Of a stretch of 44,573 nt of DNA, positions 1 to 38,149 are shown one piece after another. This DNA is from Pseudomonadota bacterium (GTDB lineage: Bacteria > Pseudomonadota > Gammaproteobacteria > Steroidobacterales > Steroidobacteraceae), in contig JAPLSF010000183.1 in NCBI GenBank assembly GCA_026398785.1, positions 1 through 44,573 on the forward strand, written 5' to 3'. Under the pieces are notes generated by a model. That model saw only the letters and a program-made list of their open reading frames with translations. It made no database searches and was not told the DNA's origin. Every line of letters starts with the position of its first letter. The first letter of the stretch is position 1. Made by a program: the position numbers and the translations under genes.

Positions 1-2
1 CG

Positions 3-2477: not shown

Positions 2478-2980
2478 TTCGCTCGGGCAAGGCGCGCCAT
2501 ACGCGCCACGGCGGCGGACGTGGCGGCCACGGGCCGCTCACGCTCATTCCGATGATCGACATGCTGATGATCATCGTGGTCTACCTGCTGGTGCACTCGG
2601 CGGACACTGAGGTCCTGTCGAACAGCCGCAACATCTCCATCCCGTACTCGGCGTCGGACCAGAAGCCGCGGCCGGCGACGGTGGTGACCGTGACCCGCGA
2701 CATGCTGTACGTGAACGGCGAGGCGGTCGTCTCGGTGGCCGACGTGGGCAGCACGGCGGAGCCGGTGGTGGAACCACTGCGCGCGGCACTTGGCCGGGAG
2801 TCAGCCGGTCTTCTGCCCGGTACGGACGCGCAGCGCGAGGTGACCGTGATGGCCGAGAAGTCGCTGCCATATGCCGTGCTGCGCAAGATCGTTGCAAGCT
2901 GCTCGGCCGCCGACTACACCAAGGTGTCTCTGGCGGTCGTCGAGCGCGAGCAGGTGCTTGCTGCGCAGGCAGGGGCCTGA
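2474..2980 (+). CDS. exbD: ExbD/TolR biopolymer transport protein (paralog 2)
   Basis: The motif is LTLIPMIDMLMIIVVYLLV. The start overlaps the upstream stop as ATGA. Confidence 0.9.
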   Translation: MIRSGKARHTRHGGGRGGHGPLTLIPMIDMLMIIVVYLLVHSADTEVLSNSRNISIPYSASDQKPRPATVVTVTRDMLYVNGEAVVSVADVGSTAEPVVEPLRAALGRESAGLLPGTDAQREVTVMAEKSLPYAVLRKIVASCSAADYTKVSLAVVEREQVLAAQAGA

Positions 2981-2993
2981 TGGAGCGGGCACG

Positions 2994-3926: not shown

Positions 3927-3949
3927 GACCCGTTCTGAGTCCATAACCA

Positions 3950-3971
3950 CCCGGCCTTTCCGCCGGCCGGG
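3950..3971 (+). terminator. GC hairpin downstream of tonB (terminator-like, no U tract)
   Basis: CCCGGCC (3950-3956) pairs with GGCCGGG (3965-3971) around an 8-nt loop, 24 nt after the tonB stop. Confidence 0.3.
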
Positions 3972-4024
3972 GGTAGCTCCCTAGCATTCACGTCCCCGCA
4001 ACAGGTTCGCGGGCGAGGAATGCC

Positions 4025-5863: not shown

Positions 5864-5874
5864 GCAGAGCGAGC

Positions 5875-7539: not shown

Positions 7540-8291
7540 GCCGCGGAGGGGTGGCACGAATGAGAGCATTGGCGTGGGATCCGGGCCGGGCGATGCACGA
7601 GCCCGTCGTCCTGGACGAAGTCAACAGCGACCTCGAGCGCATGAGCGCTACGGATCGCGTGCGCTGGGCCGTGGCGAACCTGCCGGGCGAGCACGCGCTC
7701 TCGTCGAGCTTCGGCGCGCAGGCGGCCGTGTCACTGCACATGGTGACGCGCGAATTGCCGTCGCTGCCAGTCGTGCTGATCGACACAGGTTACCTGTTCC
7801 CGGAAACCTACCGCTTCATCGACGACCTGGTCGAGCAACTCGAACTCAATCTCAAGGTTTACCAGCCGCGCGTTTCGCCGGCCTGGCTCGAAGCACGTCA
7901 CGGCCGGCTCTGGGAGCAGGGCCTCGATGGCATCGACCGCTACAACGAGGCGCGCAAGACCGAGCCGATGCAGCGCGCATTGCGCGAGCTCGGCGTGCAC
8001 ACGTGGTTCGCCGGCCTGCGCCGCGACCAGGCCGAGACGCGCAGCCGCATCCGGCCGCTCGAATGGCGCGACGGCCGCTGGAAGGTGCACCCGATCTTCG
8101 ACTGGACCGACCGCCAGGTCTTCGATTACCTGCGCCAGCACCAGTTGCCGTACCACCCGCTGTGGCACGAAGGGTACGTCTCGATCGGCGACTGGCACAC
8201 CACGCGCACGCTGGCCGAGGCCGGCGACGTCGAGGCAACGCGCTTCTTCGGCCTCAAGCGCGAGTGCGGCATCCACGGTCTCGAAGACTGA
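7536..8291 (+). CDS. cysH: Phosphoadenosine phosphosulfate (PAPS) reductase, E. coli CysH type
   Basis: The product is near-colinear with E. coli CysH ([16 protein letters not shown]; [16 protein letters not shown]; [13 protein letters not shown]). It has a single Cys and no extra Fe-S Cys pairs. I chose the start at the ATGA overlap with the cysI stop; alternative ATGs are at 7560 and 7593. Confidence 0.9.
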
Positions 8292-8292
8292 C

Positions 8293-9699
8293 GTGCGCTA
8301 CTTCCCGCTCTTCGCCGATCTGCACGGCCGACGTGTCCTCGTCGTCGGCGGCGGTGCCGTGGCCGAGCGGAAAGTGCGGCTGCTGCTCGACGCGGGCGCG
8401 CAGGTGCGGCTGGTCGCGCCCGCAGTCACGGCATGGCTGGGTGAGAGCGCAGCAGTTGAAATCCACCGTGAGCGATTCGATCCACAGCACCTCGAAGGCG
8501 CCGTACTCGCCATCGCAGCGACCGACGATCGTGCGGTGAACGAGGCCGTCGCGGCCGCCGGACGCGACCGCAACGTGCTCGTCAACGTCGTCGACGTGGC
8601 GGAGCTCTCGAGCTTCATCGTGCCCGCGATCGTCGACCGCTCGCCTCTGGTCATTGCGGTATCGACTGGCGGCGTCGCCCCGGTGCTGGCGCGGCACGTG
8701 CGCGAGCGGCTGGAGTCATTGATCGACGGCTCCTTTGGCCAGTTGGCCGGCCTGCTGCAACGGTGGCGCGGCAGGATCAGGGGCGGTCTGCCTGACGTCA
8801 ATGCGCGTCGCCGTTTCTACGAGACGTTGGTGCGTGGACAGGTTGCGGCGCTCGTGCGCAGCCAGGACCTGCCGGGCGCCGAGCGCGAACTTGAGCGCAC
8901 CTTGCAACATGCCGATGCGCCACAATGCGGCAGAGTCGTGCTGGTGGGCGCAGGTCCCGGCGATGCCGGCCTGCTGACCCTGAACGCACTGCGGGCCCTG
9001 CAGGAAGCGGACGTGATCCTGCACGACCGACTGGTCGCCGACGACGTGCTGAACCTCGCGCGGCGCGACGCCGACCGGATCTGCGTCGGCAAGATGGCCG
9101 GCGGCCACTCGGTCTCGCAGGGCCGCATCAACGAACTGCTGCTGGAGCAGGCGCGACTCGGCCGGCGCGTCGTGCGGTTGAAGGGCGGTGATCCGTTTAT
9201 TTTCGGCCGCGGCGGCGAGGAGCTGGAATTCCTCGAGCAGCATGGCATTCCGTTCGAGGTCGTTCCGGGCATCACCGCGGCCATCGCCTGTGGCGCGTAC
9301 GCGGGAATCCCACTCACACATCGCGAGCATGCGCAGTCCGTGCGGTTCGTGACGGCGCACAGCGGCGACTCGATGGACAGCCTCGACTGGGCCGCGCTGG
9401 CGCAGGAGCGGCAGACGCTTGCGCTCTACATGGGCGTGGCGGGTCTCGGCACGATCCGCGACCAGCTGATGCAGCACGGCCGTGCGCCATCGACGCCGGT
9501 GGCCATCGTCGAGAACGGCTCGCGCTCGAATCAGCGCGTGGTACTCGCGACCCTTGCTGAACTCGAGGATGCCGGACGCGCTGCCGCCGTGAAGTCGCCT
9601 GCCCTCGTCATCGTTGGCGAAGTGGCCGCGCTGGCCGAAAGGCTGCACTGGTTCGGGTCGACGCCCATTTCCTGGCGCGCACTTCGAGCCGTGGCCTGA
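8293..9699 (+). CDS. cysG: Siroheme synthase (precorrin-2 dehydrogenase/ferrochelatase plus uroporphyrinogen-III C-methyltransferase)
   Basis: A GTG start lies 1 nt after the cysH stop. The N-terminus is [25 protein letters not shown] and the SAM methyltransferase half contains [16 protein letters not shown] and [16 protein letters not shown]. The product is colinear with E. coli CysG. The longer track ORF from 7927 is out-of-gene read-through. Confidence 0.9.
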
Positions 9700-9710
9700 C
9701 GACAGCCCGC

Positions 9711-9728
9711 GGCGGAGGTCACTCCGCC
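9711..9728. terminator. Hairpin between convergent cysG and the TonB-dependent receptor
   Basis: GGCGGAG (9711-9717) pairs with CTCCGCC (9722-9728) around the loop GTCA. It overlaps the receptor stop codon at 9719-9721. Confidence 0.35.
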
Positions 9729-11821
9729 TGCCAGCTCACCTCCGCGAACACCGAACGCGGGCGTCCCGGAAAATAGCGGTAGTTGCCGAACGCAAAGTCG
9801 GCGCGGTCGGCATACGCGCGATCGAGCGCATTGTTGAGGCGCAGGGCCAGCGACCACCGCGGCAGGAACTCCCAGCGGGCCCGCAGGTTCAGCAGTTCGT
9901 GGCCGGTGTAGCGGCGGGCATTGGCGGCGTCGAGGTAATAATCGCCCACCACCAGCCACTCCGCTTCGGCCGCCACGCCCGGTATCGGCGCATAGTTGAG
10001 CGCGGCGCGCAGCAGGTTGCGCGGAGCCGTGTCGACATCGTTGCCGGCCGTGATCGTTTCGCCGCCTTCGATGGCGCGCGAAAATTCGTAGCGATGCCGT
10101 GCGTAGGTGCCTCCGACCGTGGCCGCGAGTGAATCGAGCGCCTGCCAAGTCAGCGAGTACTCGACGCCTTCGTGCGACGTGCGGCCGTTGCTTACGTTGA
10201 AGCCGCTGGAATCGCGCAGGATCACGTTGTCCTTGCGCATGTCGAATCCGGCGATTTCACCACGCCAGTCGCCACGTGCGAACTTCAGGCCGATTTCATA
10301 AGCGTCCACCTGCTCGGCTTCGAGGTCGGCCACCGACTGATTGCGCTGCAACCGGTAGAGTTCGGTCATCTCCGGCGGGCGGAACCCGCGCGATGCGTTG
10401 GCATACAGCATCAGGCCTGTGCTCGCGTCCCAGCGCAGGCTGAACTTGGGCGCCGCATTGGTGAAGGAATCGCTGCGATCGGCCGGCCGGCTGTAGAGGC
10501 AACCCGCCGGCAGGCACGGCACGCCGTTCTCGTCCGTGTTGCCGGCCAGCATGCGGTTGTCGTAACCGTAGCTGACGTACTCCACGCGGACGCCTGCACC
10601 GGCGTGAAGTGCCGGCGTCAATGCGTAGTCGAGCTGGGCATAGGCGCCTGCCACGTTCGACGTCACGGTGTAGTCGTAGTGCAGGCCGACAGGACGGATC
10701 GCGTTTGCCGCGGGACTGCCGCCCGTCGTGGGGTTCTCCTGGTCTTCGACCAGGAACGAATCGGCCCACTCGAGGTCGAGACCGGTGATCAGGCCAACGC
10801 GACGCCCAAGGTCCCAGTCGAAGCTCGTCATCACGCCCGCACTCTCCTGGCCGTTGCGTTCGACCGGCTGGCCGAGCAGGAAGTGCTGCAGGAAGTCCAT
10901 GCGCGAAGTGCGGAGGTAGGGTCGCAGTTCCAGTTGCCCGGGCAGGGACGTCTGCGGCTGCACCAGTCCCGTGAGCCGCACGGCGTTGGCGTTGCGATAG
11001 GCCTCCGGGTTCAGGTTCTGCTGGCCCAGATCCGGGTCGCGGTAGGCGTTCTTGCCCAGGATGAATCCAGCCGTCTCCTGTTCGAGCTTCGTCGCCGCGA
11101 GATCGAACCGCGAGGGAATGCTGCCGCCCGCGCCGGTCGTGAGCGTGGCGTTGAGCTTGCCCTCATCGAAACCGGACTCGTCACGCCAGCCGCCGTCGTG
11201 TGTATACAGCGCCTTGATGCCAAGACCAGTGGTCTCGCCCTGGTGCGAAGCGACCAGGCTGCCGCGCGCGTACTGGTCAGGACCGAAGCCGAGTCCCAGC
11301 TGCCAGTGCGGCAGTTCAGGCGGTGCGTCCTGCAGCACGTTGATCGTGCCGTGCACGGAATTCGAGCCATAGAGGGCCGTACCGGTGCCGCGGAGGATTT
11401 CGATCGCATCGGCCTGCTCCGTGTTGATCTCGAGCATCTCGTTGATGTTGCAGAAGCCCACGGGCCGGATCGGCACGCCGTTTTCCAGGAACAGGAACGC
11501 ACCGCACGAGCCGGCGCCAGTCAACACGGGTGAGCGGATCGCCGTGAGGCTTTCCTGGCCACTGCCACGTTGCACCATCACGCCCGGCACGCGGTTGAGC
11601 ACCTCCGAACTGTGCGTGGCGCCAAGCAGGTCGATGGCGTCCCGGTCGACGCGACCGATGCTGAGCGGCGTTGCCAGCGTGGCCACGGGTTGCCGTTGCG
11701 CGGTCACGACGATTTCTTCGAGCGCGGGAGAAGCTGCCCGCACAGTTGCGGCCGCGGTGATGCCCGCGCCAGCGATGAGGCGCGCGAGGCAGTGCGCTGA
11801 TCGAAAGTTCAGCAAAGTCAT
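9719..11821 (-). CDS. TonB-dependent outer-membrane receptor
   Basis: It has a signal peptide and a plug-domain/TonB-box region (LEEIVVTAQRQ; LNRVPGVMVQRGSGQES; IEILRGTGTALYGSNSVHGTINV) followed by a long beta-barrel. I chose the start at ATG 11821; GTG 11860 is an alternative. Confidence 0.9.
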   Translation of the reverse strand: MTLLNFRSAHCLARLIAGAGITAAATVRAASPALEEIVVTAQRQPVATLATPLSIGRVDRDAIDLLGATHSSEVLNRVPGVMVQRGSGQESLTAIRSPVLTGAGSCGAFLFLENGVPIRPVGFCNINEMLEINTEQADAIEILRGTGTALYGSNSVHGTINVLQDAPPELPHWQLGLGFGPDQYARGSLVASHQGETTGLGIKALYTHDGGWRDESGFDEGKLNATLTTGAGGSIPSRFDLAATKLEQETAGFILGKNAYRDPDLGQQNLNPEAYRNANAVRLTGLVQPQTSLPGQLELRPYLRTSRMDFLQHFLLGQPVERNGQESAGVMTSFDWDLGRRVGLITGLDLEWADSFLVEDQENPTTGGSPAANAIRPVGLHYDYTVTSNVAGAYAQLDYALTPALHAGAGVRVEYVSYGYDNRMLAGNTDENGVPCLPAGCLYSRPADRSDSFTNAAPKFSLRWDASTGLMLYANASRGFRPPEMTELYRLQRNQSVADLEAEQVDAYEIGLKFARGDWRGEIAGFDMRKDNVILRDSSGFNVSNGRTSHEGVEYSLTWQALDSLAATVGGTYARHRYEFSRAIEGGETITAGNDVDTAPRNLLRAALNYAPIPGVAAEAEWLVVGDYYLDAANARRYTGHELLNLRARWEFLPRWSLALRLNNALDRAYADRADFAFGNYRYFPGRPRSVFAEVSWQAE

Positions 11822-11934
11822 GGAGGAGGGATCCAGCAACGACGCGAGATGCAGTTTCACCGGCCATTATTACCGACCGGACGCGGGAGTGGTGCCGGCG
11901 TTTGTTACCATCGCCGCACTTCCTGGAGCTGGCC

Positions 11935-14262
11935 ATGCGAATCCCATTCGTCACCCGCTGCTTGCGCACCTACCGACTGCAATCTCCGTCCCGTCCGGCG
12001 TGGACACGGCGAGCGCTGCGGGCCTGCGTCGGCATCGCCTGCGTGGTTCATGGCCTGCCCGCGCAGGCGGCTGCGGCGGAGAGCACTGTACAAGGCGCGC
12101 CGGTACCGGTTGCATCCGAGCCCGCGCGGCCCCGTATCGGGCTGGTGTTGAGCGGAGGCGGCGCGCGCGGAGCGGCTCACGTCGGCGTGATCCGCATGCT
12201 CGAGCAGATGCACATCCCGATCGACGCGATCGCCGGCACGAGCATGGGCGCCGTCGTCGGTGGACTCTATGCCGCGGGACTGAGCGGGGACGAAATCGAG
12301 CGTGTGTTCCGCGAACTCGACTGGCAGGAAGTGATCCGTGACCGCGCGCCACGGCGCGAACGCGCTTACCGCCGCAAGCAGGACGACCGCAACATCCTCG
12401 CCAAGGGCGCCCTTGGCGTGAACACGAGTCGAGGCGTCGTGCTGCCGCTCGGCCTGGTGCAGGGCCACAAGATCACGCAGGTGCTGCGCGATGCCACGGT
12501 CCGTGTCGCCGACGTGCAGGACTTCGACCGGCTGCCGACACGGTTCCGCGCGCTCGCGACCGATCTCGAGACGGGCGAGGCCGTCGTCATGGGAGACGGC
12601 GACCTGGTGACCGTCCTGCGCGCAAGCATGTCGGCCCCGGGCGTGCTCACGCCGGTCGAGAGAAACGGTCGCCTGCTGGTGGATGGCGGCCTCGTCGACA
12701 ACCTGCCCGTCGAACTCGCACAGAGCATGGGTGTCGACCGGCTCATCGTCGTCGACGTGAGCTTTCCGCTGGCGCGGCGGGATGGACTGGGTTCGGCTTT
12801 CGACATCACGAACCAGATGGTCGGCATCATGGTCCGGCGCGGCACGCTCGAATCCAAGGAGCACCTGCAGCCGGGCGACGTGCTGATTGAGCCGGACCTC
12901 GGCGCGATGACCGCGATCGAGTTCGGGCGCATGCCACAGGTGATGGAACAGGGGAAGACGGCTGCCCTGGCGCAGGCCCCTGCGCTCGCCGCGCTGTCGT
13001 TGCCCACCGCTGACTACGAGCGGTACGTCGCACAGCGCGCTCGTGCTGCGGAGCCGGTCGTGCAGGTCGCGTTCGTGCGACCGGACGCGCAGTCGCAGGC
13101 AGAGGCAAAACGGGTCGAGGCCGTCTTCGGCGATCTGGCTGGCAAGCCGCTCGACCGGCCTGAACTGCAGCAGCGCCTGGCTTCGCAGTATCGCCTCGAC
13201 GATTTCGAAACCGTCGACTACCGGATCGCACGCGACACCAACGGCGAGCGTGGACTGGAGATCGACTTGCGCCGCAAGTCCTGGGGCCCGGCGTTCCTGC
13301 GGCTCGGCGTGGGCATGGAGAACGATTACGAAGGCGGCGCCACGGCAAATGCAGCAGCGCAGCTGCGCGTGACGCGACTCAATGCGCTCGACGCCGAGTG
13401 GATCATCGATGGCCAGATCGGCGAGGAGCCGAAGCTGCAGACCGAGTTCTACCAGCCGCTGTCCCTGCGCCGGCCGTACTTCATTGCGCCGGCGTTCCGT
13501 TACGAACAAGTAACATTGCAGATCGTCAGCGACGAAGGGCAGCGGCTCGCGCGTTATCGCACTCGCGATACCGAAGTGTCGCTGGCGGTGGGCGCGGAGC
13601 TGTCGAACTGGGGCGAAGTGCGTGCGGGCATGCGGCGCGGCGACGGCAGCAGCCACGTGATGATCGGCGATCCAGGCCTGCCGACGGCCGAGTTCGACCT
13701 CGGCGGTGCCTTCGTGAATTTCGGCTACGACCGGCTCGACAGCGGCTATTTCCCGAAGCAGGGCCAGGCGTTTCGCGCGAGCTGGATCGCGGATCGCGAG
13801 TCGCTCGGCGCCACGCGGGATGCGGACATCCTGCGCGCGTCGTGGCAACTGGCGCGCAGTCGCGGCCGTTACAGCGTGGTGTGGTCGATGGACGGCGGCT
13901 CGGCCCTGGACGACCAGGTGGTCTCACCACAGGAGCTCTTCACGCTCGGCGGACTGTTCGATCTGTCCGGACTCACGCCCGACGCGAAAGTCGGCACCCA
14001 GTACGGCATCGCCCGCGCCATCGTTTACCGCCGCATCAGCCGGGGCGGCACGGGCTTCTTCGAGTTCCCGGCCTACGTCGGCTTCTCGGTGGAAGCCGGC
14101 AATGTGTGGGCGACCCGCGATGACGTGGACTTCGGCGACCTCGAGACGGGTGGCAGCCTGTTCCTCGGTGCCGAGAGTCCGTTCGGCCCGGTCTACCTGG
14201 CCGCGGGCCTCGCGAGTGGAGGCGAACGGGCCTTTTACCTCTACCTCGGCAAGACCTTCTGA
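11935..14262 (+). CDS. Patatin-like phospholipase fused to a POTRA/Omp85 beta-barrel (PlpD-like, type Vd secretion architecture)
   Basis: The patatin motifs are GLVLSGGGARGAAHVGV, the GxSxG nucleophile IAGTSMGAVVG and DGGLVDNLPV. The C-terminal half resembles an Omp85/surface-antigen barrel and ends YLYLGKTF. A GGAG Shine-Dalgarno sequence lies 7 nt upstream of ATG 11935. Confidence 0.85.
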   Translation: MRIPFVTRCLRTYRLQSPSRPAWTRRALRACVGIACVVHGLPAQAAAAESTVQGAPVPVASEPARPRIGLVLSGGGARGAAHVGVIRMLEQMHIPIDAIAGTSMGAVVGGLYAAGLSGDEIERVFRELDWQEVIRDRAPRRERAYRRKQDDRNILAKGALGVNTSRGVVLPLGLVQGHKITQVLRDATVRVADVQDFDRLPTRFRALATDLETGEAVVMGDGDLVTVLRASMSAPGVLTPVERNGRLLVDGGLVDNLPVELAQSMGVDRLIVVDVSFPLARRDGLGSAFDITNQMVGIMVRRGTLESKEHLQPGDVLIEPDLGAMTAIEFGRMPQVMEQGKTAALAQAPALAALSLPTADYERYVAQRARAAEPVVQVAFVRPDAQSQAEAKRVEAVFGDLAGKPLDRPELQQRLASQYRLDDFETVDYRIARDTNGERGLEIDLRRKSWGPAFLRLGVGMENDYEGGATANAAAQLRVTRLNALDAEWIIDGQIGEEPKLQTEFYQPLSLRRPYFIAPAFRYEQVTLQIVSDEGQRLARYRTRDTEVSLAVGAELSNWGEVRAGMRRGDGSSHVMIGDPGLPTAEFDLGGAFVNFGYDRLDSGYFPKQGQAFRASWIADRESLGATRDADILRASWQLARSRGRYSVVWSMDGGSALDDQVVSPQELFTLGGLFDLSGLTPDAKVGTQYGIARAIVYRRISRGGTGFFEFPAYVGFSVEAGNVWATRDDVDFGDLETGGSLFLGAESPFGPVYLAAGLASGGERAFYLYLGKTF

Positions 14263-14320
14263 GTCGTCCGGCAGGGCGCGTCCGGAAACGCTAAAATGCA
14301 GGCCTTCCCGGAGAGTGCTC

Positions 14321-14563
14321 ATGGCCATCGCCAACGAACAGAACCTGCGGCAGTCGCTGCCCGATTCCCGCCCCTACGGCCTGCGCCTCCGCGCACGCCG
14401 CAACGACCCGTTCCGTCACCTCGTGGGCGATGACTGGCAGCAGGAACACTGGTTCGCGAGCCGTGCCGAGCGCGATGCCGCGCTGGCGCAGATGAGTGGC
14501 CGCTATGTCTATTTCCGTCCGGGTGACGCACCGACGCTCGACTTCGAGAAAGTCGACCCCTGA
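14321..14563 (+). CDS. Small hypothetical protein (80 aa)
   Basis: The ORF starts at ATG 14321 (MAIANEQNLRQSLPDSRPYGLRLRARRNDPFRHLVGDDWQQEHWFASRAERDAALAQMSGRYVYFRPGDAPTLDFEKVDP). Its composition is not Arg/Pro-skewed, unlike the artefact frames. I recognise no motif. Confidence 0.5.
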   Translation: MAIANEQNLRQSLPDSRPYGLRLRARRNDPFRHLVGDDWQQEHWFASRAERDAALAQMSGRYVYFRPGDAPTLDFEKVDP

Positions 14564-14605
14564 AAAGTCGACCCTGGAACATCGACTGATGATCGTGGCG
14601 GCCTC

Positions 14606-15292
14606 TCAGTGGCTGCGGTCGCCGGCCCCTTCGCGGTCCGACCAGCCGAGCAGACCCCGCGTCACCCACCGATACACGGGTTTGCCGGTGCGCATCCAGA
14701 TCGCGGCCGGCCATGAGCGGCGCGCGAGGATGGCACGTTGCCGCGCCGTGAGTCGCTCCGGGCAATACGTGCGTTTGTGCTTCAAGAGGTGCCGCAGGTC
14801 GTCGTAGGCGAGTGCGCGGAAGCGCCAGCCGCGATAGCGCGGACGCATCGCGAGTTGAAAGTCCACAACTGCAGGGGAACCGTCCGGCGCGACGAGCCAG
14901 TTCGGTTCCTTGGCCAGGTCGTTGTGCACCACACCGGCCGCGTGCAGGCGTCGAATCAGTCGCAGGGCTTCGCGGTAATACGCGGGATCGCGTGGCTGGA
15001 CTCGCTGCATCGACTGGCCGTCGAGCCAGGAGCGCCGCAGGCGATGGCCGTCCCACTGCAGCAGCCGCGGAATGCCCGGCACCTGCCGCAGCGCCGCGAG
15101 TGCGTGCGCTTCGCGGGTCGCGAGTCGTCGCGCCGCGAGCCGCAGCCACCAGCGTGCGTCGCGCGTGTCGCGTTCGATGCAGGCGGAACCCGGGTGAGAG
15201 CCGTGCGCAGGCGCGTCGATGCGACAGACGGAACCCAGCAGGTCGCGCTTGAGCACGGTGCGCGACGTGGGCTCGTTCAAGGCAATCGCCAC
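14606..15292 (-). CDS. Protein-kinase-like (RIO/Kdo-kinase-like fold) protein
   Basis: It has a kinase catalytic-loop-like motif (LHAAGVVHNDLAKEPNWLV) followed by VVDFQLA. A GTG start at 15292 overlaps the upstream methyltransferase gene by 16 nt. The track ORF extends to 15646, but that N-terminal part is Arg/Ala-rich junk. Confidence 0.65.
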   Translation of the reverse strand: MAIALNEPTSRTVLKRDLLGSVCRIDAPAHGSHPGSACIERDTRDARWWLRLAARRLATREAHALAALRQVPGIPRLLQWDGHRLRRSWLDGQSMQRVQPRDPAYYREALRLIRRLHAAGVVHNDLAKEPNWLVAPDGSPAVVDFQLAMRPRYRGWRFRALAYDDLRHLLKHKRTYCPERLTARQRAILARRSWPAAIWMRTGKPVYRWVTRGLLGWSDREGAGDRSH

Positions 15293-15894
15293 CAGGGGGC
15301 GATGGCTCCGGCGTGCTGCAGCAGGTGCGCCGCCTGCATCAGCGCCAGTGCCAGCAGCAGGCTGCCGGCGTCGAGCACGGCTTTCCACACCACGCGCGGC
15401 TGGATCTCCATCGACTCCGGGACCGAGCAGCGCGACCAGTCCGGCATCAGCGCCGGCACCTGATCGCGGTAGCGTCGAGCCGCATCGCCATGCGCGCGCT
15501 CGAGCAGCGCGTCCTCGGCCCGCATGGCACCGACGTGCAGCAAGGCAGCGATGCCCACCAGCGCCAGCAGCAGCACGACACTGCGCGTGGCGAGGCCGAG
15601 GCCGAGCATGCCGATCAGCGACAGCAGGTACAGCGGGTGCCGGCACGCGGCGTACGGCCCGGCCAGGACCAACGTTGCGTCCTTGCGCCCGGCGATGAAC
15701 AGCGAGGTCCAGAAACGGCCGAGCGCGGCGATCGCGACCAGCACGAACCCGAGGAACCCCACCAGGCCGCTCGCGAAACCGGAGAATGTGGGGCGCTCGG
15801 TGAGGGCGACCAGGATGATGCAGGCCACGACGGCGAGGGCCATCAGGCGCACGCGCGGGGTGCTGCGGGAGCTGTTCACGGGGTCGGGTGGCAC
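15277..15894 (-). CDS. Isoprenylcysteine carboxyl methyltransferase (ICMT)/phospholipid methyltransferase-family membrane protein
   Basis: The product is multi-pass hydrophobic and carries the family motif LVLAGPYAACRHPLYLLSLIGMLGLGL. Confidence 0.8.
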   Translation of the reverse strand: MPPDPVNSSRSTPRVRLMALAVVACIILVALTERPTFSGFASGLVGFLGFVLVAIAALGRFWTSLFIAGRKDATLVLAGPYAACRHPLYLLSLIGMLGLGLATRSVVLLLALVGIAALLHVGAMRAEDALLERAHGDAARRYRDQVPALMPDWSRCSVPESMEIQPRVVWKAVLDAGSLLLALALMQAAHLLQHAGAIAPWWRLP

Positions 15895-15935
15895 ACGGTC
15901 ATGCAGGCATTCTAGCCGCCGGTTAAAGTGCGCGG

Positions 15936-16628
15936 ATGAACTGGCTCGGACTCTATTTCAGCTCGCTCCTGGCGGCGTTGCTCGCGATCCTGCCGATCGT
16001 CAACCCGTTCGGCGCCGTTCCGCTGGTCATGTCCGCATCTGGGCACCTGCCCGAGCAGGAACGCCTGCGCCAGATTCGCCGCGCCTGTGTCTACACGTTC
16101 TTCCTGATGTCGGGCTTCCTGGTGGCGGGCGGCCTGATCATGAATTTCTTCGGCATCTCGCTGCCCGGCATGCGCATCGCCGGCGGCCTGATCGTCGCGT
16201 TCCTGGGCTTCCAGATGCTGTTTCCGAACCCGATCTCTGACAAGGAAGCCATGACCAAGGCGGCGGGGGAGAAGTACGACATCGCCTTTACTCCGCTCGC
16301 CATGCCCGGACTCAGCGGCCCCGGAACTTTCGCGGTCGTGATGAGTCTTTCGTCGCAGGCCGCAGCGCAGAAAGGCTTCCTGGTCATCGTCGACTTCATG
16401 GGCGTGCTCACGGCCATCTTCCTGACGGCGCTGCTCAGCTGGTTCGTGCTCCGGGGCGCTGAACGCGTCAATCGCCTGCTCGGTGCCACGGGCATGGTCG
16501 CGCTGACGCGGCTGACCGGTTTCCTGATGATCTCGATCGGTGTGCAGTTCCTGATCAACGGCACGACCATGATCCTGAACGATCCTGCGTTCTGGTCGGG
16601 TCTGGCCGAAGCACTGCGCGCCCGCTAG
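15936..16628 (+). CDS. MarC-family (UPF0056) integral membrane protein
   Basis: The N-terminus [18 protein letters not shown] and the six-TM layout are typical of the MarC/YhgN family. Confidence 0.85.
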
Positions 16629-28654: not shown

Positions 28655-28728
28655 CCTCAAGTCAGGCGCGACGGTGCCCGCCACCGACGCAACTCACGCC
28701 AACCAAAGGCAAAGGGAGATCGATTCAC

Positions 28729-29295
28729 ATGGCAGCGAAGAAGAAAGCGCGTCGTGCGGCGCCGCGCAAGGTCAGCAAAGCGAAGGCCGGCAAGGCCAGG
28801 CGTAAAGTCGCAACGAAGGCGAAGGCCGGCAAGGTCAAGCGCAAAGTCGTCAGGAAGGCGAAGGTCGCCAAGGCCAGGCGCAAAGTCGTCAGGAAGGCGA
28901 AGGTCACCAAGGCCAGGCGCAAGGTCGCCAAGGCCCGCAGCACACCGACCAGCCGCCGCGTCGCTGCCGTAAAGGCTGCCGCGAGGAAGGCCCCGGCCCG
29001 CACGCGTGCGGCCGTCAAGAGAGCCGTCGGTAAGTTGCCGCCGTCAGCCAAGCGCGCCCTGCGCAAGGCCGACCGCAACCTGAAGTCGGCCGAAAAGAGC
29101 ATCGTCAAGGCGGTGAAGTCCGCGCAGAAGCAGGCTTCGAAGACCGCCGCGCAGGCCGGCTCGATGGTCAATGCCGCACAGGCGTCGGCTGAGAAGCAGG
29201 CCACGTCGATGCTGGATTCGGCCAAGGAAATGGCGGCCAAGGTCAGCGAGACGGTGCAGAGCGCTGTCGGCAACCTGGTGCCGGGCGAAAAGTAG
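28729..29295 (+). CDS. Lys/Ala-rich histone-H1-like (AlgP/PhaF-tail-like) protein with a helical, phasin-like C-terminal half
   Basis: The N-terminal half is four 13-aa basic repeats (KAKAGKARRKVAT / KAKAGKVKRKVVR / KAKVAKARRKVVR / KAKVTKARRKVA). The C-terminal half is Ala/Gln/Ser/Lys-rich and helical (KSAQKQASKTAAQAGSMVNAAQASAEKQATSMLDSAKEMAAKV). Confidence 0.8.
   Translation: MAAKKKARRAAPRKVSKAKAGKARRKVATKAKAGKVKRKVVRKAKVAKARRKVVRKAKVTKARRKVAKARSTPTSRRVAAVKAAARKAPARTRAAVKRAVGKLPPSAKRALRKADRNLKSAEKSIVKAVKSAQKQASKTAAQAGSMVNAAQASAEKQATSMLDSAKEMAAKVSETVQSAVGNLVPGEK
28777..28929 (+). repeat. In-frame 39-bp tandem repeats (about four units) inside the H1-like gene
   Basis: The unit starting gcaaagtcgtcaggaaggcgaaggtc recurs at 28841 and 28880, and in diverged form at 28919, giving a period of 39 nt. 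An earlier, more diverged unit starts near 28777. Confidence 0.8.
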
Positions 29296-31406: not shown

Positions 31407-31976
31407 TCAAGCATCGTGGAGCTTTCGTTCGGCGTATTCGAGCTTGGCCCGATCGGCCGTGCCGAGCATGGTCCTCACCGGGTCGAGAAACTTCACGACC
31501 GTGGCCAGATCCTTCGCATGCCAGGCCTCAGTCGCGCCGTTCAATGCCAGACGCAGACGATTCTCGGTTGCGTAGCGGGCGGCTTCGGCGTCGCGTTGAG
31601 TGACGAGGCGCGACCAAGCTCCTTCGTCGCCACGCAGTAGCGGCACGCAATACGTTGCCAGGAGCTTTGCCATGATCTCCAGCAACTGCCGCACCGACCT
31701 CTCGTCGCGCGCCGCGTAACCCGTGGGCTGAAGACAAGCCGGGACCGAGGACGCGCGGATGACTTCGTCAAAACCGAAGTCCGGTCCGCGTGCCGCGTCG
31801 CGTCTGTTCAGGCCGATGAAGACCTCGCTTGAGCGTTGACTGTCGTGACCCACGGCCAGTTTGCAGGCCGTGGATTCGTACATGGCCAGGTCGGGCTCTT
31901 TGGCGATACGCACGAAGCCGTGCCCGGTCAGTGTGGCTCCAAGGATCTCGTCTGCGATCAAAGTGAATTCACTCAT
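31407..31976 (-). CDS. 189-aa hypothetical protein; candidate cognate immunity protein of the RHS C-terminal toxin
   Basis: ATG (31976-31974) overlaps the RHS stop TGA (31975-31973) as ATGA. The product is cytoplasmic-looking, with no signal peptide or TM segment (MSEFTLIADEILGATLTGHGFVRIAKEPDL...KLEYAERKLHDA). I recognise no domain. The gene call is solid, but the immunity role is inferred from position. Confidence 0.6.
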   Translation of the reverse strand: MSEFTLIADEILGATLTGHGFVRIAKEPDLAMYESTACKLAVGHDSQRSSEVFIGLNRRDAARGPDFGFDEVIRASSVPACLQPTGYAARDERSVRQLLEIMAKLLATYCVPLLRGDEGAWSRLVTQRDAEAARYATENRLRLALNGATEAWHAKDLATVVKFLDPVRTMLGTADRAKLEYAERKLHDA

Positions 31977-34900
31977 GGTTTCGGTGGGTGATAGGCACCC
32001 GTCTCCGCGTTGTATTGCCAACCGTGCGATTCGAGCAGCTTGCGTTCGGCATTTAGGAAACGACCGGGTGAGCCGGGCGTCGCTCCCGCCGGGATCTGAA
32101 GGCCCGACGGTGTGCGATACGAGTCGTGAATGGGTTCCTGCCGGCGTATCTCAGCGCGAAGCTTCCCTGCGTTCTGCTGCCAGTTTGCCTTCGCCGACCC
32201 GCGGTTGGGAAGGAAGAGCATCCAGTCCCCGCGCTTCCAATTTCCGGCGGCGCCGCGTGTGAGGTTTCCGTCACGACCAGCGCGGTACAGATTCAGGCCG
32301 CCTGACTCGATTGCACTCGTCGACTTCGCTGCACGCCGTAATGCCTTCGTAGGCGCCAGAATCGACTGACACGGTTTGACGACGTCGCAAACGGTGAAGC
32401 CGACATAAAGAATGGCCGTGGCGTTGTCGCCCCGTTGTGCAGCGTCGTACGCGTCCCTGGCGTCGTGGACGGACGAGAGGATCAGGACGTCGACCGCGTT
32501 GATCCCGAGATCGATGAAGAGGCGTTCGAGGTTTTCCTGCGCGTACTCGTCGTCGACAGACGTTTCTGCCCAGGTCGACGTCGGTACGCCGCTTCCTGCC
32601 CCTCCCGGCGCACCTGCATACAGGATGGTGCCGCCGCAGGTAGGTGAGAAGGTCCCCGCACCGCACAGTCCCACGCCGTTCTGCGCCGACCGGCCGGGCA
32701 ATGCGGTCGCCGGCGGCGGCGGCAAGCCGCCATGGTTAAGCAGGCCGTAGGCGAGCGAAGACAGGATCGAGTCGACAACGAATTTGCCGACATAGATCGA
32801 AAGGCCGCCGTCAACGAGGTAACCCGTGGGGTCCGTCGCGTTCAGCGGCCGGTTGCCGACGTACGCATACGGATTCACCGCCTGCGAGTCGCCCAGGTCG
32901 CCGATCAGCGGGTCGGCCGAGAGGAACCGGCCAAGTGCCGGGTCGTATACGCGACCGTTCATGTGGACGAGTCCGACGTTGTCGAGCATTTCGTGCCCGG
33001 TGAAACCCTGGCGGGTCGTGTTGGCGATGCCCAGCCAGTCCGGTGCGGTCGTTGCACTCCAGTTACCGCCGCGTCGGGTGCCGAACGTACCGAAGCTTTC
33101 CTTGGCAACCGTCACGCCCGCTTCGTTCAGCAACGTGTCGCTGCTGCCGAGGTGGTCTGGCATGACATAGGTCGTGGAACTCGTGGCATTCGAGTTGCGC
33201 GAGATGACGACGGTCGAACCGCCGGGTGTCGGCACGTAGTGCCGCCAGTACGTCACGCCGGTAGAGGTCGTGGATTCCTTCTCGAGCAGCCTGCCGAGGT
33301 ATTGCGTCGTCTCGGTGCCGTTCTGGTAGCGTGCGACCTGGCGCCAGCGCTCGTGATCGGGACCGTAGGCAATCTGGGCCTGATAACCCGGTTTGCGCAA
33401 CGTGGTTGGCAGGTTGAACGAAGCCCAGTCCTGGGCGAGGCCGTTGCGCGACGCAAGATTGCCGTTGCCGTCGTACGTGAACGTTTCACTGCCGGCGGCC
33501 GTCACTGCATGCGGTCGCGATGCGTTGCCGTAGGCGTAGCTCCCGATGTCCGATTTCTGCAGGATGTTGCCCGATGCGTCATAGCTCACGGACAGGTTCG
33601 CCGCTCCGTTCAGCGTGGAGTTCGTCACGCGATCGAGCCCGTCGTAGGTGAAGGCTTCGGCCAGGTTCTGATTCAGGTCGCGTCGCTGCAGGAGGTTGCC
33701 GGCCCCGTCCCACTGGTAGGCGAGGTTCTGGCGGGCGCTGCCGGCACCGGCGGGGCCCGCTTGCTGCGTTGTAAGGCGCTGTGTCGCCGCGTCATAGCTC
33801 GACGATCGCGAGATGGTATTGCCCGACAGCGACTCCTGGGTCGGCGCATCGAAATCGCTGACCGCGTCGAGCTTCCAGAGCGTGCGCGGCGTCGCCAGCG
33901 TGACGTCGTCGATCTGCGATGGCGCGCCGAAGCTGTACGAGTAGCGGAGCCGGAGTCGACCGCCCGATTGACCCGAGGGCACTGGACTGTACGGATAGGT
34001 CAGCGTGCCGATCTCGCCGATCGAGTTGTACGTGTAGTCGTACTTGTAGCTCTGGCCCGTCGTGATCGTGCGCTTGCTGACGCGGCCGAGGCCGTCGTAG
34101 GCGAGCGTTTCCGAATAGCCGAGGCCGGCCTTCGACTGCAATCGTCCGATGTTGTGAGCGGTCGCCGACGAGCCCCACGTCCAGGTGCTGGTGCCCTCGG
34201 GTTCGGTGCGGGACAGTCTGCGGCCGAGCGTGTCGTAGTCCGCAGCGAACGATCGCCCATTTGCGTCGGTCCAGGCGACGACTTCACCGAGCGAGTTGTG
34301 CGTAAAGATCCAAGCTCCAGCGTCCGCATCCGACCACTGCGTGCGGAACCCACGCACATCGTAGGTGCCGGTCGAGACCGCCCCGATGGCGTCCTGGATG
34401 CGATTGAGGTGACCGAGTGAGTCGTAGTCGTACCGCGTCGTGCCGCCGGGGGACGGATCCATCGCGCGACGCAGGTTGCCAGCGACATCCACGATGCGGG
34501 ACCGCGAACGACCGAGCGTGTCCGTGAGTGTCGTGGTCCGACCGGAGTAGGTGAGGCTCGAGTTGCGAACGATTGCGCCGCCGCCGTCATAGTCGCGCTC
34601 GCTGAGCGGTCGACCGAGTGGGTCGAAGATCCGGATCGTGTGGCCGTTGAGGACGCTCGCATAGGGTCGCGATTCACGGGTCATGCGCCCCGCTGCGTCG
34701 TAGTCGTACGTCCGATGCAGCCAGGTGCCGAGCGCACCGTGGTACTCCTCCAGCCGCGGGCGCTCGTAGCCGTCGTAGTAGGAATGGTGCTCGCGGATCA
34801 GCGTGCCGTCGGCCGCGTAGTTGCGGTCGTACACGAGGAAGCGAAGTTCGCCCGTGCCCCAGCATCCGGTCGTGCCGCACGACTGGAAGGTCCACGTCCG

Positions 34901-37900
34901 GCGCGTGCCGTCGCTCGCCGTCTCGTTGACCCGGCGTCCGAATGGGTCGTGTGACCACGTCGTCGCCAGCCCGTTCGGATCCGTGACGCGCGTCGGCACG
35001 CCGAAGTCGTAGCGCCATTCGTAGGTCGTCGTTGCCGCTGCCGCGTTGGTGGCGGACTCGGGCAGCTGGCAGCGGCTGCCATAGTTGAAGCTCGCCGTCC
35101 TGGCCGCCATCGCCGTACCGTTGGGGTTCGAGCCCACGGTGCGCACAGAGTTCAGGTTGCCGCAGCCGTCGAAGCCGAACGAGGTGATGACCTTCAATGC
35201 GGGGATGTTCGGTTCGACCACCTGCTGCGTGATCCGGCATGGCACCGGGTCGGTCTCGTACGTCGTCGTTTGCGTCACGGCGGACTGGTCGGGTGCAGTG
35301 CTCGTCGTCGAGCGGCTGACGGGCAGGCCCAGGCACCAGTTGCCCGACGGGTCATTCATGTAACCGAGACTCAACGTCGAGCGCCACGCGCTGTTCACGT
35401 GCGGCGAGTATGGGTCCCGGTCCCAGGTGGTGTTCTGCACCTGAGTGGGATTGCCGTAGCCGTCGCCGTACGTGAACGTCGTTGCCGCTTCCGTCACCAG
35501 CGTGCCATTGAGAGCCCCGCCGTGTTCGAACTGCCTCAGGCTGGTGGACGCGACGAAAGGGAATGCGCGCTGTTCGCTGCCCGCCGGACCCATCGCCTGC
35601 AGGCCGAGGACCGCCTGCCATTGGCGCACGGGCGTCGAGCCGTTGGCCTGGAACACGTCGCGCTGCACGTGCATTCCTGTGTATGGGAACGCCCGTGACA
35701 CGGTGTCGAGCGTGACGAGGCCCGTGCGTGTGTCCTCGATGCGTTGCGTCGCGAATCCCTGGAAGCCACGTCCTTGCAGGTGCAACTGCGCGCCGGAGTA
35801 TTGCAATCGGTTGCGGTAGACGCCGCCGGTTCCGTCGGTTGCGCTGAACTCGCTCACCACGTACAGCGGGCCCTGGAAATCGGCCGCCGGAAAGACCGCG
35901 TCGTTCAGGCGCGTGTGGTTGCTGCGCGCGATCGAAACGTAGGTCGGGTTCTGGCGCACGCCGAACCCGTCGACGAACGCCGTGGCCAGATCGGCTGGCA
36001 CAGCCGGGCCCGCGTGCAGCTGGTAGCGCAAGCGGTTGCCGTCGCGGTAAGCGAGATCGGTGAGTCCGTCGCCATCGGCGTCCAGGTCGAACCAGACGGT
36101 GGAGGTGGGCGCGCTGATACCCGTGCTGACAGGTGCAGCTGCGCCTTCGCCGGTCGAGCGCACGACGAACCACTGTCGCGTTGCGGCATCGATGTACAGC
36201 AGGTCGGCGCGACCATCGCCGTTCCAGTCCGCCGGGAGCGCCGTGTACAGCGTATTGCCGGTTGCGGCCGTTGCCCTGGTCGGGAGCTCGACAAAGGCGC
36301 CAGCGCAGTTCGAGACGAATACGGTCTGCACCTGGAGGATGTCGGAGCAGCCGTCGGCGTTCCAGTCGCCCATCGTCACCATCGACTCCTGCACCAGCAG
36401 TTTTTCGGTGCCGACTGTGAATGCGTTGCCGAAACCGTTCGACAGCAACGGCGTGGCAAAGAACTTCGAATTGCGGTCCAGCTTGTTGAAGGTCAGCGCG
36501 ACGATGTCCGCGCGGCCGTCACCGTTGAGATCCGCGACGCGCAGGTTGTCCCAGGGCGTCGCCTGCCGCAGGCTCGGTATCGTCCACACGGACTGCGCGG
36601 TCGCAGCGAACTGAACTGCGAGCGAAGTGCTCGCGGGAGCGCTGACGTTGCGGCGCACGTTGATGGTCGGCGTCAGGCCGCCGCTCTGCGCCACGAGGTC
36701 GGCGAGGCCGTCGCCGTCGAAATCCGCTGCGCCGTATTCCCCGGTGGGGATCAGGCCGGTGTTCGCGGTGGTGAAGCCCGCGTTGGTGTAACCGGCGACG
36801 TACCAATACCCGTTCTGCACGACCAGGAATTGCGTGCGGCCGTTACCGGCGAAGTTGCCCGGAATGATCGTGTGTGTCGTGCTCGTCACCAGGCCGGTGT
36901 CGAGCGGAGCGGCGAAGCCCACTGGGGTTCCGAGGAGAATGCGCCAGCTCAATTTGCCGGTGCCGGCATCGACGGGATAGAGCAGGTCCGTGACGCCATC
37001 GCCGTTCAGTTCGAGGGGCACTGGCGCCCTGGCGGTCGAGACGGCCACGCCGGTATCGACCATGGGTTGCCAGCCGCTCGCGCCGCTCTGGTAGGTGATC
37101 GCGGTGGGCTGCAGGCACGTCGAGGCTGCACACTCCTGCACACTGGCCAGTCGCAGCCGTCCCGAGACCGGGGCGGTCTCGTAGCCAAGCGCGTACGTCT
37201 TGATCGGCGTCGCTGCGTCCATGACCTGGATCGCGATCCGGTCGAGCTGGTACGGATCGCGTACCAGGTTGCCGGCGAGGTAACCCGTGGGAACGTCGCT
37301 CGCAGGACGAGCGGAATATGCGAAGTCGACGCGATAGAAAGGGCCTGCGCCGGTGGCGGTCGTCGGGTAGGCAATCGAAGCGATTCGATGGGTACCGTTC
37401 GTGTACGCGCCGTACTGCGCTTCGTTGGCGTAAGTGAGGGTGATGGCATTGCCCGTGCCGACGCCTGCCCGGTCGCGGACACGCGACAGCGCCCAGGCAC
37501 GAATCGTGGGCGACGCACCCGCATAGACGCGCGAATCGACGGTACCGCCGTACTCGTAGATCAACCCGTTCTTGGTCGTTACCGTGAATGAGGCGGGGCC
37601 GTTGCCTGCGGCGCCGTTCGCGACGATCCGCGAAAACGTCTCCACCTCGGTGGCATAGACGGCACCAGCCATGCCTTGCGTGCCGCTCACGAGCTTGAGT
37701 TGCTGGCCGTCGAGGCAGTAGCGATCGGCCAGGGTGTTGGTGACGCCGGCCGTAGCGCCGTCCTGGGCCCAGGTGCGATTGCAGCGCGCGATCGTCGAAA
37801 GCCCCGCGATCGACCAACCTACGCCAACAGAGCCGCTGCCGCCGCGGCTGGCATACACCAGCGCGAGATCGAGATCGACCTCGCCGACGCCCGGTGGCGT

Positions 37901-38149
37901 CCACAGCGGGATGCGATACGTTGCGGCACCCGAGTGCGAGACGCCGAACTCGGCGGGCGTGCGACCGGCGGTCGAAGCATCTGCGACACCGGCGAGCGCA
38001 GCGGTGGCGTAGGTGCCTGGCGTCCCCGCGCTTGCCAGCGAGCCGGACGCGCCAGCGCCGGATATGCCTGTGATCGAAGCTGCAATCAGTGCGATACCGA
38101 TCGAGCGGCCGTGCCGGGCCAGCCACTGCATCCCTGCGTCATTCCACAT
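31973..38149 (-). CDS. Giant secreted RHS-repeat toxin: signal peptide, SpvB/TcaC N-terminal domain, 7-blade FG-GAP propeller, TcdB-mid-like region, RHS/YD cocoon, RHS core and a variable C-terminal toxin (TcB-TcC-like fusion)
   Basis: - Size and start: the product is 2058 aa. A GGGAGA Shine-Dalgarno sequence lies 7 nt before ATG 38149.
- N-terminus: the signal-like segment is [20 protein letters not shown].
- SpvB-type block: [46 protein letters not shown].
- FG-GAP motifs (seven): [77 protein letters not shown].
- YD repeats: many are present, for example [56 protein letters not shown] and YDGNGNLA.
- RHS core: [11 protein letters not shown]...[33 protein letters not shown]...[19 protein letters not shown]. 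Confidence 0.95.
   Translation of the reverse strand: [2058 protein letters not shown]
31976..32818 (-). other. Variable C-terminal payload (aa 1778-2058, 281 aa) of the RHS protein, downstream of the DPTGY core boundary
   Basis: I mapped the boundary on the DNA: the Tyr codon of DPTGY is at 32819-32821. The payload opens with a hydrophobic segment ([22 protein letters not shown]) and a Gly/Pro linker. It ends in a basic region of about 110 aa ([63 protein letters not shown]...[18 protein letters not shown]). I recognise no known toxin motif. Confidence 0.6.

Follow-up and report, generated by a model that had tools for sequence, protein, structure and literature searches.

How does a toxin enclosed in a shell of the insecticidal toxin complex (Tc) type reach its target when no TcA-type injector is encoded beside it? 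The question is raised by one gene in a 44,573-nucleotide (nt) stretch of DNA from a Steroidobacteraceae-like gammaproteobacterium (contig JAPLSF010000183.1 of assembly GCA_026398785.1). The whole stretch is called the window here, and gene coordinates are window positions. The gene encodes a 2058-amino-acid (aa) protein that joins the parts of TcB and TcC in one chain, and is followed by a small gene whose start codon overlaps its stop codon. An earlier note on this DNA had read the protein as an orphan, with no delivery partner nearby. We consider the locus to be a chromosomal module of two genes, for a polymorphic toxin and its immunity protein, that belongs to the SpvB/TcB-type ('TcdB/TcaC') class and is used against other bacteria, and put the probability of this reading at about 0.8. 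The evidence does not support its reading as an insecticidal Tc toxin that has been orphaned, and a TcA-type injector is not needed in cis.

A TcB–TcC equivalent in one chain

The toxin gene is an uninterrupted open reading frame (ORF). A GGGAGA ribosome-binding site lies 7 nt 5′ of its ATG, and its third-position GC content (0.81) equals that of the adjoining genes. A consensus scan for promoters and terminators between positions 31000 and 39000 gave counts at or below shuffled expectation.

Domain scans of the protein used Pfam and NCBIfam hidden Markov models (HMMs). Pfam matches are SpvB at aa 71–250 (33.8 bits, cut-off 22), FG-GAP_3 in four stretches (54.2 bits), TcdB_toxin_midN (29.3 bits, cut-off 24.8) and RHS_repeat (57.6 bits). 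Among NCBIfam models, Rhs_assc_core covers aa 1710–1776 (66.4 bits, cut-off 32.5), and YD_repeat_2x and RHS_core also match. TcdB_toxin_midC had no match in the 2058-aa protein. Seven FG-GAP-type motifs (D/E-x-N/D-G-D-G...D) occur near aa 380, 432, 476, 540, 595, 641 and 690; the spacing of these D-x-D/N-G-D-G motifs over aa 380–700 is about 50 aa. The Rhs core motif ends DPTGY↓L, with the cut predicted after DPTGY (aa 1777). This autoproteolysis motif is conserved in relatives, where the core includes.SADP...NNPLS..DPSGF and is followed by 220–316 variable residues. In the SpvB/TcB N-terminal region of the family, Cys123 and Cys145 never vary and Cys340 and Cys345 scarcely do. The N-terminus itself has a basic n-region and then a hydrophobic h-region, and a hydrophobicity heuristic finds a signal-peptide-like start here and in 45 of 51 family members. 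In the AlphaFold2 model the leader is a lone helix (aa 2–29) followed by a disordered linker.

The SpvB and TcdB-mid domains score modestly, and the assignment was therefore tested further by a family profile and by fold comparison. The profile, built from 45 members and searched against all PDB sequences, retrieved YenB (E 5e-28) and TcdB1 (E 8e-22). It aligns to the start of SepB, to the SpvB N-domain 6p0x and to the propellers of YenB, TcdB1 and SepB. The predicted structure of aa 1–900 has a mean predicted local distance difference test score (pLDDT) of 87.9 and a predicted template modelling score (pTM) of 0.86. When this model is compared with the PDB by Foldseek, the best 13 matches are all TcB chains or TcB–TcC fusion chains (TcdB1, TcdB2-TccC3, YenB), with E values from 1e-25 to 3e-31 (TcdB1, 3e-31) and query template modelling scores (TMq) of 0.55–0.64. 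The next group consists of Rhs proteins of type VI secretion systems (T6SSs), at E 1e-9 and TM <0.2. The match to 6p0x has an E value of 2.5e-9, and that to the teneurin-like 9ifo one of 8.8e-5 with a TM of 0.11. For the RHS shell, sequence matches among solved structures are the Rhs shells 7q97, 8qj* and Tse5.

HMMs, sequence profile and fold comparison together support a single chain that has a Sec-type leader and corresponds to TcB plus TcC. The earlier note had proposed, behind a Sec signal, an SpvB block, a propeller of seven FG-GAP blades, a TcdB-mid-like region and an RHS shell with its core. These parts are borne out by the matches to SpvB, TcdB_toxin_midN, FG-GAP_3, RHS_repeat and the Rhs core; TcdB_toxin_midC, which the note also named, is the exception.

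A toxin tip exchanged with its downstream gene

A 189-aa gene, which lies outside the coordinates given in the earlier note, follows the toxin gene directly, its ATG overlapping the toxin TGA as ATGA. Such an overlap of downstream start and toxin stop is found in the window and at the related loci L003, L006, L009 and L017. The 189-aa protein has no signal peptide and no Pfam match, even at E up to 10. Its 32 homologues come, where the source is named, from metagenome-assembled genomes (MAGs) of Steroidobacteraceae or Proteobacteria. Across the window and 85 related loci, each taken with up to 10 kb of flank on either side, the gene occurs only where the window's toxin tip is present (window, L002, L006). 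Position and co-occurrence make it a candidate for a translationally coupled cognate immunity gene.

The C-terminal part of the toxin has two segments. The pre-toxin region (aa 1778–1944, 167 aa) has a hydrophobic start and, in all, hydrophobic segments together with a PPPP tract and two pairs of Cys residues. By tblastn it is present at ten further distinct related loci with 46–90% identity, and eight of the ten lack the window's tip. The terminal module, or tip (aa 1945–2058, about 114 aa), has 28 nearly invariant positions in an alignment. Its motifs are GGLNL, GD, KANWxQN, PIxDS and FLNAERxLL, in a fuller form GGLNL..GW..GD..L.LP..GS.KANW.QN..LR.E...PI.DSYR, then.Y...GAYHPP. The C-terminal 285 aa, which span both segments, have no Pfam match at E up to 10. 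AlphaFold2 models the tip as a small alpha/beta domain with moderate confidence (pLDDT 70.6). Foldseek against the PDB found no fold neighbour for it (best E 0.38), so that no function can be inferred. Two readings built on conserved residues D68/S69 and E94/R95/K96 (module numbering), one as a PD-(D/E)xK nuclease and one as a Rossmann-like, NAD-targeting enzyme, found no support and were dropped.

Comparison of one chromosomal site across relatives defines how these segments are inherited. The shared order is PAP2, toxin, immunity or small gene, and ADH-NUDIX-PEPcase. Between PAP2 and ADH a related gene is present in L002, L003/L044, L006, L008, L009, L014 and L017. In the window, L002 and L006 the same tip is accompanied by the same 189-aa gene. 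L003/L044, L009 and L017 retain the shell and pre-toxin region, at 58–75% identity to the window, and end in a different tip (...RAGTHYVSD...VDDL/VDEL). The alignment of the window protein with L003 runs to about aa 1946 and stops there. The gene after the alternative tip differs too: it encodes 115 aa in L003, where the 189-aa gene has no counterpart, and 95 aa in L009, while in L017 the reading frame continues into the oxidoreductase gene. A third tip, Ntox10, ends metagenomic relatives that have the same pre-toxin region. The site comparisons and the Ntox10 fragments thus mark aa 1778–1944 as the constant part, and aa 1945–2058 with the downstream gene as an exchangeable cassette; these natural swaps place the start of the exchangeable part at about aa 1945. 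Since tip and downstream gene are exchanged together, they are best read as the toxin and immunity partners of a polymorphic system that serves competition between bacteria.

The tip is not confined to this scaffold. A profile search of 1.84 billion cluster representatives (50% identity) found at least 150 that match, and all 150 listed have an E value of 1e-40 or better. Carriers include a TPS/ESPR/DUF637 protein of the CdiA type (P0258) as well as DUF6443-RHS and Laminin_G/fn3/DUF6531-RHS proteins; in others the tip stands behind PT-TG or PT-HINT. Judged by this distribution, the tip is a mobile antibacterial module. CdiA-type proteins act between bacteria. That such proteins carry the tip, and that the immunity protein has no leader, both suggest that the toxin acts inside bacterial cells.

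Could the victim nevertheless be a eukaryote? The protein might be a secreted toxin against eukaryotic grazers or fungi, with the downstream gene guarding the producer from its own cytoplasmic precursor. Steroidobacteraceae of soil and sediment encounter protists and fungi, a toxin with a universal target requires self-protection whoever the victim, and TcB-like shells are best known from animal-active toxins. This alternative is improbable, given that toxin and immunity gene are swapped as a unit among close relatives, which is the signature of kin competition, that the same module is carried by a CdiA-type protein, and that several paralogues with different tips occur per genome.

Relatives, inheritance and selection

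The extent of the family was estimated by scanning species-representative genomes once, which yielded at least 578 related stretches. The family is thus large, and a gene standing alone is normal for it. The best 80 of these stretches are almost all from MAGs of Steroidobacteraceae or unclassified Gammaproteobacteria, with up to 90% identity. Most relatives are single ORFs of 2000–2400 aa, and several genomes hold two copies. L006, L007 and L014 belong to near-identical MAGs. A search with the N-terminal 900 aa likewise returned many relatives; most of those with a named source come from Steroidobacteraceae and other MAGs of soil and sediment. Eleven C-terminal regions of the family were scanned (window, L009, L018, L022, L023, L024, L026, L034, L036, L060 and L083); as none matches Pfam above threshold, the family appears to be a reservoir of toxins and immunity proteins that have yet to be studied.

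The window and L002 are colinear, with 86.5% nucleotide identity over 17.7 kb. This colinearity and the occupation of the same site in relatives indicate that the gene is old and vertically inherited here. Recent horizontal acquisition was considered and is ruled out by the host-like composition and the same colinearity. Selection was measured against the intact L006 orthologue as the ratio of nonsynonymous to synonymous substitution rates (dN/dS). The value for the whole toxin gene is 0.19. By module it is lowest in the Rhs core (0.045), followed by the tip (0.12), the propeller and the pre-toxin region (0.16 each) and the immunity gene (0.29). Every module, the immunity gene included, is under purifying selection. 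One relative, L001 (73% identical), was set aside: its gene stops after about 1500 aa beside a yidC fragment, probably at an assembly join.

Search for a delivery partner

Pfam scans covered 30 other ORFs of the window, in which no ORF apart from the toxin gene exceeds 916 aa. The neighbours so identified are ExbB, two ExbD-family genes, a gene with a TonB C-terminal domain, a sulfite reductase/sirohaem cluster, two TonB-dependent receptors, a patatin-like lipase, PEP carboxylase, a NUDIX protein, an ADH-type oxidoreductase, PAP2, an S9 peptidase, a glyoxalase and an ABC-F protein. All neighbours with Pfam matches are housekeeping genes by these assignments. No match was found among the 30 ORFs for VRP1/TcA, neuraminidase-like, TcA_TcB_BD, VgrG, PAAR, Hcp, DUF1795 or TPS/TpsB, nor is there a holin/endolysin cassette of the kind that adjoins sepA in pADAP. 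The toxin protein has no PAAR, VgrG, prePAAR, DUF1795 or TPS feature by Pfam.

The related loci give the same picture. SepA, a TcA, was taken with sepABC from pADAP; by tblastn it has no match in the window or the 85 related loci. Eight of the largest ORFs beside related loci proved by Pfam to be AcrB and MMPL transporters, S8 subtilases, YhdP and further SpvB/RHS proteins, with no TcA among them. A hidden partner gene common to the related loci was sought by clustering their neighbouring ORFs. This returned lineage synteny only, the largest family being the ADH oxidoreductase (20 loci). When the N-terminal region was compared with plasmids by tblastn, the matches were mostly in Leptospira and other SpvB-RHS genes, with no classical Tc locus.

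The earlier note was therefore right that the flanks are housekeeping genes (oxidoreductase and NUDIX on one side, acid phosphatase and S9 peptidase on the other) and that TcA, VgrG, PAAR, DUF1795 and TpsB are missing from the window; within 10 kb of the 85 related loci, as covered by the SepA search, ORF sizes, Pfam on eight large ORFs and the clustering, none was found either. What fails is its view of the gene as an anomalous orphan. With at least 578 relatives, a coupled and co-varying immunity gene, and a class defined in 2012, what looked like orphan status is usual for genes of a known kind.

Comparison with known systems

The class in question is the 'TcdB/TcaC' trafficking class of polymorphic toxins, defined by Zhang, de Souza, Anantharaman, Iyer and Aravind in 2012 (PMC3482391, Table 1). 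It comprises a signal peptide, SpvB with an integrin-like beta-propeller, RHS repeats, variable C-terminal toxins and immunity genes, and is listed for alpha-, beta-, gamma- and deltaproteobacteria. As far as sequence can tell, each testable feature of the class is present here: the leader (by heuristic), SpvB, propeller, RHS repeats, a releasing Rhs core, a variable tip, and a coupled, co-varying immunity gene. Tip, pre-toxin region and immunity protein differ in matching no Pfam family. The class is known from comparative genomics alone, and the literature gave no member with a demonstrated route of export or entry.

The TcB–TcC cocoon (TcdB2-TccC3, 4o9x and 6h6e; YenB-YenC2, 4igl; SepB-SepC) has the same order of parts: SpvB, propeller, TcdB-mid, RHS shell, Rhs core protease and hypervariable C-terminus. 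It is made of two chains where the window's protein is one. Could the protein then be a genuine BC subunit of a Tc (ABC) toxin, docking on a TcA pentamer whose gene lies elsewhere in the genome, and carrying cargo into the cells of insects, nematodes or protists? The fold of aa 1–900 is that of TcB, including the propeller that docks on TcA in Tc toxins, and both orphan TcC genes and BC fusion genes exist (PMC7861908). One such natural fusion, ABA52082.1 of Burkholderia pseudomallei 1710b, is noted in the same paper; it too appears to be a single-gene TcB–TcC fusion, likened here by description only. In other respects the two systems diverge. SepB, a canonical TcB, has no Sec-type leader, and its D-x-D-G-D-G motifs are more degenerate than the seven well-formed ones of the window. 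A Tc complex would be assembled in the cytoplasm and released by a lysis cassette, such as the one beside sepA in pADAP; the window has neither a tcA gene nor a release cassette, and both it and the 85 related loci are negative for SepA by tblastn. Song et al. (2021), who set BC fusions aside, found no immunity gene in any true Tc locus examined (PMC7861908), in contrast to the coupled gene here. The tip, finally, is common to antibacterial proteins of the CdiA type. Of the features of a Tc complex the locus thus shares the fold only, having no TcA in cis, a leader and an immunity gene, and we consider a role as a Tc subunit quite improbable.

The Rhs effectors of T6SSs (RhsA 7q97, Tse5, Tse15, Salmonella bongori Rhs) share with the polymorphic toxin proposed here the RHS shell, the autoproteolysis motif of the core, an encapsulated toxin and a downstream immunity gene, and they are the best matches of its shell among solved structures. 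These likenesses might suggest a cargo effector of a T6SS encoded elsewhere in the genome. Against this, neither protein nor window holds PAAR, VgrG, prePAAR or the Eag (DUF1795) chaperone, and where those effectors have their N-terminal plug the protein has 700 aa made up of an SpvB domain and propeller of the TcB type. Its N-terminal 900 aa is TcB-like and resembles T6SS Rhs proteins at TM <0.2. To our knowledge, moreover, no T6SS substrate carries a Sec leader. Such an origin is very improbable, and we do not place the protein among these effectors. CdiA and other two-partner secretion proteins are further removed. Their TPS domain and filamentous haemagglutinin repeats are absent from the window toxin, and a TpsB (CdiB) gene from the window; only the tip is shared (P0258).

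Integrin-like FG-GAP propellers are adhesion modules, which would suit a protein acting mainly as a surface adhesin or in cell recognition, as teneurins do, with a non-toxic C-terminal region; this is just as improbable as a T6SS effector, since Rhs core motif, tip and downstream gene are under purifying selection, the latter two are exchanged jointly, the tip is common to CdiA proteins and PT-HINT pre-toxin contexts, and the fold match to teneurin-like 9ifo is negligible. Bacterial teneurin-like proteins are indeed tied to social behaviour, a point in favour of such a role, and Raoelijaona et al. (2026) describe them as Sec-targeted YD shells around a polymorphic C-terminal toxin with adjacent immunity genes, their delivery and release still unexplained (PMC13018210). 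The window toxin resembles them in its Sec-targeted YD shell, presumed enclosed toxin and candidate immunity gene. Its propeller is of the FG-GAP type, and with a TM of 0.11 to 9ifo it falls outside that group. Two further sources touch on these domains: SpvB is counted among the trafficking domains in later work on toxin mining (bioRxiv 10.1101/2021.10.19.465003), and a 2025 plant-pathogen preprint links some Rhs families to type II secretion genes and describes a long Xanthomonas Rhs protein with SpvB/TcdB domains.

Proposed course of events

A mechanism for the toxin and immunity module can be outlined in six steps. (i) The 2058-aa precursor would leave the cytoplasm via Sec, as suggested by a leader conserved across the family. 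(ii) Outside the cytoplasm it would fold into a closed TcB–TcC-like cocoon, its wall built of the SpvB domain, RHS shell and Rhs core; the seven-motif propeller would shut one end. Enclosure of the cargo is proposed by homology, and the fold of aa 1–900 is modelled. (iii) The aspartyl protease of the Rhs core would cut after DPTGY, as its motif predicts, and the 281-aa C-terminal piece would stay inside. (iv) The particle may be released or displayed, perhaps by a type II system or vesicles. (v) It would bind a competitor, with propeller or shell conceivably serving as adhesin. The pre-toxin region, with its hydrophobic segments and Cys pairs, might help the enzyme of about 114 aa to cross the envelope. 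Both parts of this step are speculative. (vi) The toxin would act in the target cytoplasm, and the leaderless 189-aa protein would protect siblings. The last step is suggested by gene coupling, co-variation and the use of the module by CdiA proteins.

Several points weigh against this account. Export, encapsulation and cleavage are proposed by homology. The leader was called by a simple hydrophobicity heuristic, not SignalP. The immunity role is read from gene position and co-variation alone. No activity can be assigned to the toxin from a moderate tip model without a structural neighbour. Several orthologues in long-read MAGs are split by 1-nt indels (L002 at 13707 and 15846, L003 near 14600, L004 near 13420, and L014), which could mean gene decay or sequencing and assembly error. 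The partner search spans the 44.6-kb window, and a TcA or other partner may be encoded elsewhere in the genome. In the related loci, the check for TcA comprised tblastn with one TcA (SepA), ORF sizes and Pfam on eight large ORFs, which a very divergent small partner would escape.

A more far-reaching idea is possible, though we hold it to be doubtful. The SpvB/propeller-RHS cocoon might, once exported by Sec, be a self-sufficient delivery particle that works without TcA, T6SS or two-partner system; its pre-toxin region would bring interchangeable tips out of the shell and across the envelope of a Gram-negative target, and the tip would be a new enzymatic toxin fold. If true, such delivery would constitute a route of protein import not yet described. 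We found no experimental answer in the literature to how the payload leaves the shell and enters its target, and the exit of a toxin from a TcB-type shell without TcA is a question shared with the recently described bacterial teneurin-like proteins.

For annotation, a TcB–TcC-like gene that encodes a leader and is coupled to a small gene downstream is better read as an interbacterial polymorphic toxin than as an insecticidal Tc remnant. Interest attaches to the uncharacterised pre-toxin region, to the family-wide question of delivery, and to a tip that is widespread, with its many cluster representatives on CdiA-type and several RHS scaffolds, yet has no known fold or activity. Steroidobacteraceae are mostly known from uncultured genomes. 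The family is concentrated in them, often with several copies per genome, and Steroidobacter flavus, which has two paralogues (L081 and L083, strain CGMCC 1.10759), is a cultured species in which delivery could be tested.

Features of the locus and observations on its relatives

Table 1. Window positions of the toxin gene, its segments and the candidate immunity gene, with the basis of each assignment.
Feature	Position	Strand	Basis
Complete toxin gene, 2058-aa TcB–TcC-type fusion	31973..38149	-	Stop codon (TGA) 31973-31975; intact ORF, HMMs, dN/dS
Signal-peptide-like leader (~aa 1-35)	38045..38149	-	n-/h-region, lone helix; Gly/Ala/Ser-rich linker follows to ~aa 66
SpvB/TcB N-terminal domain (~aa 67-360)	37070..37951	-	Pfam SpvB; profile versus SepB start and 6p0x; Foldseek 6p0x
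FG-GAP (integrin-like) beta-propeller, seven motifs (~aa 361-700)	36050..37069	-	FG-GAP_3; profile versus YenB, TcdB1 and SepB propellers
TcdB_toxin_midN region (aa 689-809)	35723..36085	-	Pfam PF12256
RHS/YD-repeat shell (~aa 810-1700)	33050..35722	-	RHS_repeat, YD_repeat_2x, RHS_core; solved Rhs shells
Rhs-associated core with autoproteolysis motif (aa 1701-1777)	32819..33049	-	TIGR03696
Pre-toxin region (aa 1778-1944)	32318..32818	-	Alignment; tblastn in related loci
Terminal toxin module (aa 1945-2058)	31976..32317	-	Alignment, 28 nearly invariant positions
Candidate immunity gene, 189 aa	31407..31976	-	ATGA overlap with toxin stop; co-occurrence with tip

Related loci show several other arrangements of these domains. 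In 74 Leptospira plasmid records there are genes that combine an SpvB/TcaC N-terminal domain with an RHS-associated core. In L063, a Propionivibrio MAG (2-16155), the B and C parts lie on separate genes. The B part (1687 aa) combines SpvB, FG-GAP and TcdB_midN with a phage Gp38 tail-fibre adhesin and three TIG domains. It is followed by a separate 1160-aa RHS protein, then by a second B-like ORF and a 1218-aa ORF outside the domain scan; no TcA is present. L066 (Polaromonas sp. LjRoot131, 2-21757), and also L070 and L076, have eight head-to-tail ORFs of about 880–990 aa. At least seven of the eight (six at the strict threshold of the heuristic) open with a leader that resembles a signal peptide, together with the SpvB start motif, and none has an RHS part.

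Three observations concern neighbouring genes. In a second clade (L051, L055, L057, L058 and L062), an ORF of about 1030–1080 aa, encoded on the opposite strand, begins the upstream neighbourhood of the toxin gene at a distance of about 1 kb. In L051 and L055 Pfam places it among the S8 subtilases and also finds PA and fn3_6 domains; the other three are assigned by size and position, and the association may be synteny only. In L005 (GCA_003427375.1, 1-8010) a distant toxin relative adjoins JetA-D (Wadjet), a Fic protein and a transposase, in what looks like a defence island. In the window itself, a conserved ORF of about 188 aa occupies 28725-29295, flanked by the genes for PEP carboxylase and the NUDIX protein, and is also found in L002 and L003; Pfam gave no match for it in either orientation.

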